DNA of 64,000 nucleotides. It comes from a virus. The stretch lies in the IMG/VR virus record IMGVR_UViG_3300009068_000023; one strand, given 5' to 3'. The notes under the pieces are model-generated. The model searched no databases, was not told the DNA's origin, and saw nothing but the letters and a program-made list of their open reading frames with translations. The position numbers and the translations under genes are program-made. Below are positions 54,640 through 59,817 of this stretch, one piece after another; positions within the stretch are counted from its first letter, which is position 1; the number at the start of each line of letters is the position of its first letter.

Positions 54640-54831
54640 ATGGAAGTTGATTTTGTTAATGCCTACATAAACAGGCAGAAGCAGTATATTGAAGATTTAA
54701 CAAATAAACTTATACTGGCGGAAGCTAAGATCGTTACTTTAGAAAAAACAATTAACGATCTTAGCAATAAAATAGTTGATTATGAAAGCAAGACGGTGAA
54801 GCCAAGTGAAAATAGTCGTACTAAATCTTGA
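54640..54831 (+). CDS. small coiled-coil protein
   Basis: 63 aa heptad-like ORF packed between the fibre and enzyme genes. Confidence 0.6.
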   Translation: MEVDFVNAYINRQKQYIEDLTNKLILAEAKIVTLEKTINDLSNKIVDYESKTVKPSENSRTKS

Positions 54832-56770
54832 TACAAGAAAAGACAGATTAGATTTTATTTCAGAGCAGCTTAGCGAGTACGAATGGACCAGATTACCGGC
54901 CATAAACGGACACTCGTTAAGCTTATCTAATATAAGAGCATTAGGGTTTAAGCCTTACCTTAGGTGGCAGGACCCAATGCTACATCGACACGCAACTATA
55001 ACAGAAGTTGCAACCAGCATATCGCATTATAACGCGTGGATGCTTTGTGCTGAGCTCAATCACAACCTATTGATTCTTGAAGATGATTCAAGACTAGTAG
55101 GGCATATTGACTCAGAAGAAATCGATAGACTTCTTGAAACACAAGATGTAGTATACCTGGATCACAAAGAGATGTTTCCAGGTCATGTGCAGAATATAGA
55201 TGATAAATTTATACGGCCATATTACCCTTATTGGAATAATGCTTACGCTATAAGCCCAAGGCTTGCTAAGAAGCTAGTTAATTCCAAGTTTAAGGAAAAC
55301 ATTATACCGGTTGATGAGTTCTTTCCGCTTATCAGTGGTGTTAACTATCTACACACCTGTCTGACAGATAAGCCAGGCATACTTAATAATTTTACTGCAT
55401 TAGTAGATATTTTTAAAGATCTTATACCTACTAACCCTATAGCCTATAAAACTAGTATATTTAATCAAGTATCTAGATCGGTACTTGGCTCTGATATTGA
55501 AAGTGGAGAATCCATAATGACTCAAGAAGCAATCGTTGTCACCGTTGCTACAGACTCTGAAAAATACAAATACCTTAGTAAGTCAAGTGCGGCTAAAGAG
55601 GTACCGATTATAAACATCGGCGATGGTGTAGAATGGAAGGGTGGTACAATGCAAGGACCGGGCGGTGGTCAAAAGATTAATTTAGTTAAAGATTATCTTA
55701 AGAGCATTGACGGTAATAAGATTGTATTGTTCTGCGATGGTCATGATGTCATCATTAATGATTCATTAGAGACTATCGTGAATAGATTCTTAGGGTTTGA
55801 ATGTGACGTGCTTTTTGCAGCTGAAAAGATCTGCTGGCCTGATCGTTCCATGGAACAGTATTTTACTGAATCACATACCGCATACAAGTATCTAAACAGT
55901 GGAGTATACATTGGATACAAGGACTCTATCCTTTCCATCATAGATGATTATATACAGGATTCGGATGATGATCAACTATTTTTACAGAAGAAGTATGTAG
56001 AGAATAAGAGTAATAATAAGGTTAATATCAAATTAGATTATGAGAATTATATCTTTCAATGCTTAAGCTCTATTGAAGATGATTTAGTATTAAAGCCAAC
56101 AAAGCAATTTGTTAATATTGCTACTAGATGCTGCCCATGCATCTTACATGGTAATGGCGGGCCAAATGATAAGATTGTTTTTAATAACATCTTCCAACAG
56201 CTCTATCCAGATATTATAGAATTTATTGATGCTACAGAGCTTACAGTAGTAGCACCAGACATCCTAGAGATGGATTTTCTTACCCCAGAGATGTGTAAGA
56301 AAATTATAGACATGGCTGAAGCACATGGTAAATGGGAATCGATGTACGGTGATAAGTTTCCAGGACAAGAATTAAGAATCAGAGAGTTTAGTATGGAGCT
56401 CTGGAATACTTTAGAAAAGCATTTTAAAGAGTCGATCAACCCGGTGATAGAAAAGTATTGGTTTCCGCTATTAATGAATGGTTTGCGGGATGCTTTCATT
56501 ATTAAGTATTCACCAGAAACCCAAAAGAGTCTTAACTGTCACCATGATGCCTCTTTAGTTTCAGGAAACGTAAAGCTGAATGATGATTACGAAGGCGGAG
56601 ATACTTATTTTTATAGGCAAAACTTCTCTAATATAAATACTCAAATAGGTAAGATTATTTTATGGCCTGGCCAAGTGACACATGGACACGAAGGTCGAGA
56701 AGTAACCAAAGGCACTAAATATAATCTAGTAATATGGACAAGTAGAAAGCAGGGCGACATTAATTATTAA
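54806..56770 (+). CDS. three-domain GT25 (COLGALT-like) / PLOD-type glycosyltransferase / lysyl-hydroxylase-like 2OG-Fe(II) oxygenase
   Basis: GT25: LNL..RKDR, SHYNAW, LILEDD, YW..AY.IS, PVDEF. PLOD-GT: TVAT, W.GG..GGGQK, DGHD, LFAAE..CWP, LNSG..IG, DDDQLF, HGNG. LH: HHD (56540-56548), YEGG, PG..TH.HEG..T.GT.Y. Confidence 0.9.
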   Translation: MKIVVLNLDTRKDRLDFISEQLSEYEWTRLPAINGHSLSLSNIRALGFKPYLRWQDPMLHRHATITEVATSISHYNAWMLCAELNHNLLILEDDSRLVGHIDSEEIDRLLETQDVVYLDHKEMFPGHVQNIDDKFIRPYYPYWNNAYAISPRLAKKLVNSKFKENIIPVDEFFPLISGVNYLHTCLTDKPGILNNFTALVDIFKDLIPTNPIAYKTSIFNQVSRSVLGSDIESGESIMTQEAIVVTVATDSEKYKYLSKSSAAKEVPIINIGDGVEWKGGTMQGPGGGQKINLVKDYLKSIDGNKIVLFCDGHDVIINDSLETIVNRFLGFECDVLFAAEKICWPDRSMEQYFTESHTAYKYLNSGVYIGYKDSILSIIDDYIQDSDDDQLFLQKKYVENKSNNKVNIKLDYENYIFQCLSSIEDDLVLKPTKQFVNIATRCCPCILHGNGGPNDKIVFNNIFQQLYPDIIEFIDATELTVVAPDILEMDFLTPEMCKKIIDMAEAHGKWESMYGDKFPGQELRIREFSMELWNTLEKHFKESINPVIEKYWFPLLMNGLRDAFIIKYSPETQKSLNCHHDASLVSGNVKLNDDYEGGDTYFYRQNFSNINTQIGKIILWPGQVTHGHEGREVTKGTKYNLVIWTSRKQGDINY

Positions 56771-56799
56771 CACTGTATATACAGTGATTACGGAGCCAA

Positions 56800-59700
56800 A
56801 TGGCTAATAATGTTTTTCAAATTAAGCGCACCAGCATGCCTGGGCGCGTGCCTAAAGGCGATCAGTTAGAGATTGGCGAATTAGCCGTTAACCTAGCTGA
56901 CGCAATCCTCTATACAAAAGACACATCAAATACAGTCATTGAGCTCACATCACCAAACAAAGGTGATAAGGGCGAAACCGGCGACAAAGGTGAGCAAGGC
57001 TTCACCGGAGATAAAGGTGAAACCGGCGACAAGGGACAAAAAGGCACTACCGGCGATAAGGGTAATACTGGTGACAAAGGTGACACCGGAGATAAGGGGG
57101 ACACTGGCTCTAAGGGGCAAAAAGGTACTATTGGTGACAAGGGTGACAAAGGTGAATTAGGAGATAAAGGTCAAAAAGGCGAGCAGGTTACTGGTGCTAC
57201 GTATACAGACGCTAATAACACTACCACCTTCACCAACAGTGATTCAACCACATTCCACGTAACTGGTCTTAAAGGTCGAAAAGGTGAAATCGGGGACAAG
57301 GGTCTCAAAGGGGAGGTAGGTGACAAGGGTGATATCGGATCTAAAGGTGATAAAGGAGATACCGGTACCACTGGTAGTAAAGGTGACAAAGGTGAGATTG
57401 GTGACAAGGGCTCCACGGGCGACAAAGGCGATACCGGAGACAAGGGTCAGAAAGGTAATAAGGGAGACATAGGAGACAAAGGCGATACTGGTGCCAAGGG
57501 TACGGATGGTACATTTGGCGGCGCTACATTTAACTACAACTTCTTAACAAATACAACTAGTGTTGATCCAACAGCTGGATACTTAAAGCTAAGCAACACT
57601 AACTACGCAAGTGCAGCAAACCTTTATATCAACATTGTTGATCAGCTCTCAGCGAACGTATATTCGTTCCTCCAAACAATAGATGACTCAACATCGCAGA
57701 TAAAAGGCACGTTTAAGATTACAAGCCAAAGCAACAGTCTTGCTTTCGCGCTGTTCAATATTGTTGGATCACACACATACGTAGATAGCTACTTTAGTGT
57801 ACCGGTCTCATACCTCTCAACAACCGCTGCGTTTAGTAATAACGATCCTATCTTTATCACATTTGCTAGAACCGGTGATGTAGGTGATAAGGGCGACAAG
57901 GGTACTGCCGGCGATAAAGGTGACAAGGGCGATACCGGATCCAAAGGCGATACCGGTCAGAAGGGTGATACTGGATCTAAGGGTGACAAAGGTATAACTG
58001 GTGATACCGGATCCAAAGGCGATAAGGGCGAAGTAGGCGACAAGGGTGATAAGGGCGAGATAGGAACCACCGGGGATAAGGGCGATAAAGGTCAAAAAGG
58101 TACCACCGGTGATAAGGGTATCGCAGGTGCTCAAGTTACCAGTGCAACTTATACCGATGCTAACAATACTATTGTTTTTACTAATAATGATACAACTACA
58201 TTTAGTGTTACAGGTGTCAAGGGTCAGCAAGGTGATACCGGCTCTAAAGGCGACACCGGAACCAAGGGTGACAAAGGTAATACCGGGGACAAAGGGGACA
58301 CTGGCTCTAAGGGAGATACCGGCTCTAAGGGAAATATCGGTGATAAAGGAGACAAAGGTGATACCGGCTTCAAGGGAGACAAGGGGGATACCGGGTCTAA
58401 AGGTGATACCGGATCCAAAGGCGATAAAGGTGAAATAGGCGACAAGGGTAATGCAACAACACTAATAGACGTACAGTTTACCGCTAGTACAGGTCAAACA
58501 GTATTTACTCTACCTACTGCAGTCAATCTTCTTAGCCCTAGTGTCTTCATAAACGGGATACTATTAGCTAATACAGACTTTACATCTAATACTACTGCCA
58601 TTACTTTAGTTGATGGTGCAGCTAATAATGATATTATTTCTATTAAAGGTTTTGACGATACAGTAAATCCAAAGGGTGAGAAGGGAGAGAAAGGTCTCTA
58701 TGTAGCGTCGTATCAAATAGTAGAAAGATATACCGCTTCAGCTAGTCAGACTACTTTCTATTTTAACAGCCCTCCACTCTATACACCATTAGTTTATAAG
58801 AATGGTATACTGCTTTCTAATACAGTTTACACATCTAACACAACATCGATAGTTTTAGGATCAGGTGCTGCTATTAATGACATAGTTACGGTTGTAGGTT
58901 TTGGACAGACCGGAACAAAAGGTGAGCAAGGGGTTAAGGGCGATAAAGGTCAATCTGCTACCCTATTAAACGAGCAATTTACTGCAACTGCCGGTCAGGC
59001 AATATTTACTCTTGCTACTGCTACTAATCTTTTATCTCCAAGCGTATTTGTTAACGGTGTTTTACTAGCTAACACTGATTATACCTCTAACTCATCTTCC
59101 GTAACTCTTTCCTTTGGTGCTACTGAAAATGATACAGTTACAGTTTACGGTTATGATGATACCGTAAATCCAAAGGGGGAAAAGGGCGAGAAGGGACTTT
59201 ATACTGCATCATACCAAGTAGTTGAGAGATATACAGCTGCAAATAATCAAAATACTTTCTATTTTGATAGCCCGCCACTATATACTCCTCTAATTTACGT
59301 TAACGGTGTTTTATTATCAAACTCAGTCTACACTTCCAACACTACGTCGATAGTTTTATCCCTTAATGCATCTAATAACGATATTATCACAGTTGTTGGC
59401 TTTGGTCAAACAGGCACTAAAGGTGAGAAGGGTAATAAGGGTGAAGCAGGAACTAATGGAGCCAATGGTGCAAAGGGAGACAAAGGAACAGATTATTTCC
59501 AAGTAAGAGAAGAATATATTGCTGCTAATAATCAAACAGAATTCTTCTATTATAGCCCACCTATAAATAGTCCATCTGTTTATGCTAATGGTGTATTGTT
59601 AAGTAGTGATGTTTATTCCTCAAATAGTACAAGCTTTACATTAGCAACACCTGTAGCAAATAATACAATGGTAATTGTCTACGGATTTACACAATCTGGA

Positions 59701-59817
59701 GTCAAAGGCCAAAAAGGTGAATCAGGTACTGTATCAGTTACGTTTATAGACGGGGGATCACCCTTTACCAGCACGTCAGGACCACATCTGTCCATTGACT
59801 TTGGAGGAGTAGCATAA
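56800..59817 (+). CDS. collagen-like fibre protein D
   Basis: FQIKR..GELAVN head; four long Gly-X-Y blocks; C-terminal repeated FTA...QT.F..V.VNG.LL domains. Confidence 0.85.
58456..59430 (+). repeat. degenerate tandem duplication, 501-bp (167 aa) period
   Basis: [25 protein letters not shown] occurs at 58657 and 59158. Confidence 0.8.

Follow-up and report, generated by a model that had tools for sequence, protein, structure and literature searches.

The window analysed here is a 64,000-nucleotide (nt) stretch of DNA from the IMG/VR virus record IMGVR_UViG_3300009068_000023, and it holds the baseplate and tail-fibre module of a T4-like myovirus, as indicated by gp6-like, gp48-like and baseplate-wedge-like PHROGs. 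Within this module, a three-domain protein (P0001) is encoded just ahead of a long collagen-like tail fibre, fibre D (P0002; Table 1). A first-pass annotation had proposed that P0001 combines a COLGALT-like glycosyltransferase (GT) of family GT25, a PLOD-like GT and a PLOD-type hydroxylase, all with apparently intact catalytic motifs, and that its gene ends 29 nt upstream of the fibre. The domains are borne out by Pfam, Protein Data Bank (PDB) and motif alignments alike, and the coordinates of the two open reading frames (ORFs) give the same 29-nt gap, with GGAG placed 8 nt before the fibre D ATG. The GTG start of the enzyme gene is supported by homologues that begin with MKIFVINL and align at the same column. 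In silico evidence thus supports the description of P0001 as a compact phage variant, lacking an accessory domain, of a type of viral collagen-modifying enzyme that is already known, with a predicted activity to match.

Table 1. Features of the window that bear on the three-domain enzyme and its candidate substrates (2OG, 2-oxoglutarate).
Feature	Position	Strand	Remarks
Three-domain enzyme gene, P0001	54806..56770	+	654 residues; GTG start; no evident signal peptide
GT25 domain, like the COLGALT1 catalytic domain	54806..55510	+	residues 1-235; E92-D93-D94 (DxD) invariant
PLOD/LH3-type glycosyltransferase domain	55517..56215	+	residues 238-470; W277, D311/D314 (DxxD), W344, D388-D389, H448
Lysyl-hydroxylase-type Fe(II)/2OG domain	56237..56767	+	residues 478-654; H579-x-D581, H628; K638 replaces the 2OG-binding Arg
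Collagen-like tail fibre D, P0002	56800..59817	+	1005 residues; likely main substrate
Fibre with Mtd_N start	59817..61112	+	431 residues; short Gly-X-Lys segment; 7 Lys at Y
Collagen-like fibre	46176..48605	+	809 residues; 49 triplets; 24 Lys at Y, 0 at X
Collagen-like fibre protein	6461..7576	+	371 residues; 15 Lys at Y, 0 at X
Collagen-like fibre protein	2463..3446	+	327 residues; 16 Lys at Y, 0 at X
T4-late-promoter-like motif TATAAATA	51970..51977	+	22 nt before the ATG at 52000, first gene of the enzyme-containing run
Four ORFs between TATAAATA and the enzyme	52000..54831	+	109 residues (tail-fibre-assembly-like), 78, 689 and 63 residues

At the profile level, the N-terminal domain matches Pfam Glyco_transf_25 (PF01755; residues 2-172, E = 7e-12, 46 bits against a cut-off of 24), and the central domain matches GT_PLOD (PF25342; residues 240-461, E = 3e-57, 194 bits against a cut-off of 27). 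When the PDB was searched with the whole enzyme, the matches were collagen-modifying enzymes only: human LH3, at 7e-33 for its GT part and 8e-13 for its hydroxylase part; mimivirus R699, which matches the PLOD-type GT domain at 1e-35; human COLGALT1, at 1e-13 with the whole enzyme and 2e-14 with the GT25 part alone; and the hydroxylase domain of mimivirus L230, at 5e-10. The GT25 part retrieved no bacterial GT25 chain from the PDB even at E ≤ 1, and the enzyme has no match in NCBIfam, which includes the bacterial lipopolysaccharide (LPS) families.

An AlphaFold2 model built from 24 homologues has a mean predicted local distance difference test score (pLDDT) of 90 and a predicted template modelling score (pTM) of 0.57. 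In Foldseek comparisons, the PLOD-type GT domain has the GT-A fold and superposes on the LH3 GT domain (6wfv) with a template modelling (TM) score of 0.86 and 2.3 Å of root-mean-square deviation (rmsd) over 227 columns, at 32% identity. The GT25 domain matches COLGALT1 at 6e-15 and a bacterial GT25 galactosyltransferase at 5e-7, while the hydroxylase matches the lysyl hydroxylase (LH) domain of L230 (6ax6; E = 7e-13, TM-score 0.76, rmsd ~2 Å), with prolyl 4-hydroxylases ranking behind it at 2.5e-7 and weaker. Each domain therefore has a collagen enzyme as its best match in both sequence and structure, as the first-pass annotation had anticipated in naming COLGALT1 and PLOD3 as relatives, and clustering with LPS GT25s or generic oxygenases was seen in none of the PDB, Foldseek and NCBIfam comparisons. 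The protein is nevertheless reduced relative to its animal counterparts. Its GT25 portion matches only residues ~316-501 of COLGALT1 and is not a full orthologue of COLGALT1/2, which have two tandem GT domains; likewise, the accessory Rossmann-like domain between GT and LH is missing, a linker of ~10-20 residues (461-470 to 478) standing in its place, and the middle region of LH3 finds no match in the enzyme in the PDB sequence alignment.

The catalytic motifs align along the whole length of the protein. In the GT25 domain, LILEDD, SHYNAW and IPVDEFFP align with LVFEDD, SHYNIW and LPVDEFLP from COLGALT1, and E92-D93-D94 is the counterpart of the COLGALT1 metal motif. In the central domain, EWKGG, GGGQK, CDGHD (DxxD), ICWP, DDDQLF and HGNG align with LH3; W277, D311-x-x-D314, D388-D389 and H448 match LH3 W75, D112/D115, the poly-Asp stretch and H253, respectively, and W344 is also aligned. 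The DxxD and the distal His are Mn2+-binding, and W277 occupies the position of the Trp that binds uridine diphosphate (UDP). In the C-terminal domain, the motif HHD...THGHEG aligns with the LH3 hydroxylase domain, and the 2-His-1-carboxylate triad of H579, D581 and H628 matches LH3 H667, D669 and H719. The catalytic residues (EDD, DxxD, W277, W344, D388-D389, H448, HxD...H and K638) are invariant among 24 homologues of 42-98% identity, and the same residues are invariant in 58 distinct IMG/VR homologues, the one exception being W344Y in a few of them. Both the E-values and this invariance across the 24 and the 58 homologues lie far beyond chance.

The candidate substrates are the collagen-like fibres of the window. 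Counting only runs of four or more, fibre D contains 130 Gly-X-Y triplets, of which 71 carry Lys at Y and none at X; its helix has no Pro, and Asp or Glu dominate the X position. The five fibres combined have 246 triplets, in which Lys occurs 133 times at Y and never at X. The X-Lys-Gly context is the one targeted by lysyl hydroxylases, both the PLODs and L230 (PMC9614988).

This proximity of enzyme and fibre is also seen among the homologues. Among 58 distinct enzyme loci from IMG/VR, a collagen-like ORF is present in 32 of the 32 that have at least 5 kb of upstream sequence; the nearest such ORF lies on the same strand as the enzyme in 44/44 cases, at a median distance of 937 nt, and in each of the 14 loci that show none the contig stops short of 4.5 kb upstream of the enzyme. 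As controls, loci in related phages were taken around the gp6-like baseplate protein, and where at least 5 kb was available on both sides, a collagen ORF was found in 19/19 enzyme loci as opposed to 1/26 controls (Fisher p = 8e-12, a value inflated by the relatedness of the loci). The enzyme-linked collagens comprise 5052 triplets, with 1475 Lys at Y and 0 at X. In the three loci inspected from cultured phages (S-CAM9, S-PRM1 and CRP-6), the enzyme gene is similarly 1-4 genes from a collagen-like tail fibre whose Y positions are rich in Lys and Thr.

The association does not hold in the reverse direction. A family match within 10 kb was found at only 3 of 80 Gly-X-Lys collagen loci in viral contigs, and all three domains at 1; Lys at Y was therefore dropped as a diagnostic of the enzyme, and is a general trait of phage collagens. 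The co-occurrence of enzyme and collagen genes anticipated by the first-pass annotation thus stands when counted from the enzyme and fails when counted from the collagen, and its further suggestion that the modification may stabilise Pro-poor helices is limited by the common occurrence of Lys at Y in phage collagens that have no enzyme nearby. The missing reverse association implies that modification would be an extra that some of the phages have acquired the means for, rather than a requirement for folding Pro-poor helices.

Together, the domain identities, the intact and invariant catalytic residues, the fold matches and the tight linkage to collagen-like fibres make it likely that the 654-residue protein is a cytoplasmic, late-expressed fibre-maturation enzyme, which hydroxylates the Y-position Lys residues of the fibres and then adds two hexoses. 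Beyond those observations, we infer which substrate is used, in what order the steps proceed, which sugars are added and how the virion might benefit, for instance through stability, protease shielding or adsorption. In the proposed scheme, the C-terminal Fe(II)/2OG hydroxylase would act on the Y-position Lys of Gly-X-Lys in nascent, unfolded fibre chains before trimerisation. The GT25 domain would subsequently attach a first hexose to the new hydroxyl, either galactose (Gal), by analogy with COLGALT1, or glucose (Glc), as in L230, and the PLOD-type GT domain would attach the second, presumably Glc by analogy with LH3 and R699. All of these steps would take place in the host cytoplasm, as the protein has no evident signal peptide. 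Fe(II), 2OG, O2 and UDP-sugars are present in the bacterial cell. Furthermore, L230 (PMC9614988) and R699 (PMC9546862) are both active when made in E. coli, and the bacterial cytoplasm would therefore seem compatible with the chemistry.

Several observations weigh against this scheme. The match of the hydroxylase to Pfam 2OG-FeII_Oxy_3 (residues 567-645, E = 5e-5, 24.7 bits) falls slightly below the cut-off of 27; the pLDDT and pTM of the model indicate that the domains are sound while their mutual arrangement is uncertain; and the sugar donors cannot be read from the sequence. In addition, the Arg that binds the C5-carboxylate of 2OG (LH3 R729, L230 R887) is a Lys, K638, in every homologue. 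As Lys serves as the 2OG binder in other 2OG oxygenases, K638 is probably a functional stand-in for the Arg, and hydroxylase activity would still be expected. The fibres themselves are also less telling than they appear: phage collagens without an enzyme within 10 kb have Lys 1968 times at Y and 94 times at X, and since Lys at Y is also the rule without the enzyme, the pattern can be explained by helix electrostatics alone. Lys-Gly-Asp/Glu charge pairs stabilise the triple helix and are the probable cause of the preference for Y. That the collagens beside the enzyme have no Lys at X at all is suggestive, but a modest difference. In the collagens that accompany one homologue clade, Gln takes the Y position in about half of the triplets and Lys in 4-13%.

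The closest characterised fused enzyme is L230, an 895-residue protein with a GLT25D1-like GT (residues 1-194) and a PLOD-like hydroxylase (residues 537-895), which hydroxylates Lys in viral collagen and then adds Glc, not Gal (PMC9614988). Both proteins are single viral chains that open with a GLT25D1/COLGALT-like GT and close with a PLOD-type hydroxylase, and both viruses encode Lys-rich, Pro-poor collagen-like proteins, those of its own virus being the ones that L230 modifies. The phage enzyme, in contrast, is ~240 residues shorter, has no accessory domain between its PLOD GT and hydroxylase, has Lys at the R887 position, and belongs to a virus with a bacterial host cell. That a COLGALT-like and a PLOD-like part share one chain, as the first-pass annotation had pointed out, holds for the window enzyme, but this is the pattern of L230 and already exists in L230-type giant-virus proteins, so that the fusion is not unique to the phage. 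By analogy, L230 itself may carry a central PLOD GT domain, in the layout of longer, ~900-residue forms.

The precedent of L230 raises the possibility that hydroxylated Lys receives a single sugar, with the second GT being redundant, acting on another acceptor, or building a glycan other than Glc-Gal. L230 yields only glucosyl-hydroxylysine (PMC9614988), and R699 also makes free kojibiose (PMC12279948), which points to a certain acceptor looseness in GTs of the R699 type. Yet both GT active sites are strictly conserved in 58/58 distinct homologues, which argues that both are used, and while two-domain forms of ~417 residues (PLOD GT and hydroxylase) show that the GT25 domain can be dispensed with, most members keep it. 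A single-sugar outcome is thus considered unlikely.

A second alternative is that Lys is not the residue on which the hydroxylase acts, or that the protein is mainly a non-catalytic, collagen-binding chaperone for fibre trimerisation. The replacement of Arg by Lys at the 2OG site would count toward this as well, as would the homologue clade mentioned above (loci L016 and L019-L027, IMG/VR), which lies beside very long, Gly-Ala-Gln-rich collagens with few Lys. Even in these collagens, however, Lys is found 8-32 times at Y and never at X, the accompanying enzymes have lost no catalytic residue, and three strictly conserved active sites would be unexpected in a pure chaperone, all of which renders this explanation highly improbable.

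The members of the family are labelled in databases as 'hypothetical', as '2OG-Fe(II) oxygenase' (PHROG 61) or as 'GR25 family glycosyltransferase involved in LPS biosynthesis'. That the gene is an auxiliary metabolic one acting on envelope glycans, host proteins or other non-fibre targets, as the automatic names of the Joint Genome Institute, the PHROG 61 category 'moron, auxiliary metabolic gene' and the naming of GT25 after LPS enzymes might suggest, is scarcely credible in view of its place in a late structural run, its linkage to collagen-like fibres in 32/32 loci, and the lack of any bacterial family match in NCBIfam or bacterial GT25 chain at E ≤ 1, as opposed to 2e-14 for COLGALT1.

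The fibre-maturation reading is also informed by the enzymes that act separately in other systems. Human LH3 (PLOD3) and COLGALT1, which form the lysine O-glycosylation complex (PDB 8zgc; 6fxk, 9evj), contribute the same three catalytic modules with the same metal motifs (DxxD and His, EDD, HxD...H), and their X-Lys-Gly target context fits the phage fibres. They are, however, two proteins of the endoplasmic reticulum lumen, as opposed to a single, predicted cytoplasmic phage chain in which the accessory domain of LH3 and the non-catalytic GT domain at the N-terminus of COLGALT1 are both missing, and identity is 22-32% per domain. R699, a galactosyl-hydroxylysine glucosyltransferase, is the viral protein that matches the central domain best (1e-35, rmsd 2.3 Å, 32% identity), and its DxxD and UDP-binding Trp, both of which are essential (PMC9546862), are conserved in the phage enzyme. 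Unlike the phage protein, R699 is a stand-alone GT with an accessory domain, and the Tyr of its D-x-Y-D motif is His in the window enzyme (D-G-H-D), most homologues having Tyr.

If the GT25 and PLOD-type GT domains both act as in animals, the product would by analogy be glucosyl-galactosyl-hydroxylysine (Glc-Gal-Hyl). That a widespread phage family should carry out the full animal-type sequence, from Lys to hydroxylysine (Hyl), Gal-Hyl and Glc-Gal-Hyl, on its tail fibres with a single chain of 650 residues is a tentative proposal, about which some doubt is in order. The GT25-like domain of L230 uses UDP-Glc, and for this reason the donor of the phage GT25 domain cannot be deduced from homology. 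A possible lead comes from a near-identical contig (L084), on which a 328-residue GalE-like UDP-glucose 4-epimerase is encoded (G001:C1:3480-4466) ~4.6 kb before the place that matches window position 1. This protein scores below the cut-off of TIGR01179 (3.7e-70, 236 bits against 262), its best PDB matches are all UDP-glucose 4-epimerases, and it could supply UDP-Gal. As a specific partner of the enzyme it was rejected: PF01370 genes occur in 4/4 enzyme-bearing records, but also in 3/5 T4-like controls without the enzyme.

The family is represented on 478 IMG/VR contigs and in 241 clusters (50% identity) at E < 1e-30, and a near-length search gave 801 clusters at 90% identity. Its cultured carriers are the Synechococcus phages S-CAM9, S-PRM1 and S-8S53/55/56 and the Roseobacter phage CRP-6. 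A megablast of the window gene against GenBank phages gave no match, the relatives emerging at the protein level. Metagenomic proteins of ~900-1100 residues additionally join GT25, PLOD GT, accessory domain and hydroxylase, on giant-virus-like contigs with HSP70, topoisomerase and PIF1 helicase genes; one such long form can be aligned with LH3 over the full length, and its match to the L230 hydroxylase is at 2e-52. A quick tree without a root, from which the direction of transfer among phages, giant viruses and animals is not readable, was made for the GT_PLOD domain with 138 representatives; in it, the compact forms split from the long forms, and the animal PLODs nest among the latter (Shimodaira-Hasegawa-like approximate likelihood-ratio test support 95-96).

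In animals, collagen is known to be O-glycosylated on hydroxylysine, and modification of hydroxylysine is also on record for mimivirus. The first-pass annotation knew of no characterised bacteriophage example, and a literature search likewise found no report of a bacteriophage lysyl hydroxylase, of bacteriophage hydroxylysine, or of a COLGALT/PLOD-like bacteriophage enzyme. Tandem dioxygenases in cyanophages have been described, and hydroxylation of bacterial collagen-like proteins was predicted for other families, by Iyer et al. (2010), where the three-domain enzyme is not described. If the phage enzymes are active, hydroxylysine glycosylation would not be confined to animals and giant viruses but would also take place in the prokaryotic cytoplasm, and would be common in aquatic bacteriophages, given the 478 contigs and the cultured Synechococcus and Roseobacter phages among the carriers. 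It would constitute a new kind of virion glycosylation, which may affect adsorption, stability and escape from proteases, and it would bear on the origin of the metazoan PLOD/COLGALT toolkit. Moreover, glycosylated human collagen is not yet producible in bacterial systems (PMC9546862); a compact enzyme native to bacterial cells would, if the prediction is true, be a candidate tool for that purpose.

As to expression, the late promoter that the first-pass annotation had placed at 51970 corresponds to a copy of TATAAATA, a candidate promoter from which the enzyme-containing run starts. Given this motif and the position of the run among structural genes, late expression alongside the fibres would be expected. 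The motif occurs 6 times in the window, always on the + strand (2429, 11415, 22469, 51970, 56632 and 59562), which is fewer than the 11.9 copies expected from shuffles. Three copies stand just ahead of gene starts (2429 before 2463, 22469 before 22548, and 51970 before 52000), and two lie inside coding sequence, at 56632, 168 nt before the fibre D ATG, and at 59562, 255 nt before 59817. This placement suggests separate candidate late promoters for the fibres. Parts of 51900-61200, among them the beginning of the enzyme gene, are matched at 99% identity or more by contigs from three metatranscriptome libraries of lakes; as proof of transcription they were set aside, owing to possible DNA carry-over and thin cover over most of the enzyme ORF.

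The DNA itself derives from freshwater lake metagenomes, and an 84-kb IMG/VR contig is 94-97% identical to the window. A 959-residue structural protein in the window is ~45% identical to proteins from the Synechococcus phages S-PM2 and S-RSM4. The 689-residue ORF (52568-54637) that separates the enzyme from two upstream oxygenase genes belongs to no family in Pfam or PHROG; the Atlas clusters nearest to it consist of viral hypothetical proteins, in part with an Mtd_N fibre start, so it is probably another fibre or fibre-associated protein.

The two oxygenases close a second candidate collagen-modification unit, at 48944-51966. It opens with a Lys-poor, 524-residue collagen-like ORF (87 triplets, with 3 Lys and 16 Pro at Y) and continues with an 87-residue ORF and the two stand-alone 2OG-Fe(II) oxygenases, of which the first (50786-51367) is nearest to the collagen-type prolyl 4-hydroxylase from Bacillus anthracis (4e-7) and the second (51349-51966) to hydroxylases of the PKHD/PiuC type. 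In S-CAM9 and S-PRM1, a pair of 2OG oxygenase genes is likewise found just upstream of the three-domain enzyme.

Within the collagen repeats of fibre D (57000-58440), contigs of one DNA run that are 90-99% alike skip from 111 to 1846 nt, which points to repeat-length variants among related phages or to assembly collapse of the repeats. Long forms of the enzyme are found at L165:3-5004 and L163:10001-12700 as proteins of 899-1112 residues, with GT25 and full PLOD, on low-GC contigs; the long form of L165 has, ~1 kb upstream, a collagen ORF in which Lys stands 13 times at Y and never at X, and after it comes a second GT25 gene that stands alone. Among bacterial genomes, relatives are present on only seven contigs, including those of the cultured bacteria Streptomyces kronopolitis and Kaistia terrae. 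Both copies are chromosomal: the Streptomyces kronopolitis gene (L168) lies ~200 nt after a small collagen-like ORF with many Pro at Y, and the Kaistia terrae gene (L169) encodes the two-domain form with PLOD GT and hydroxylase.

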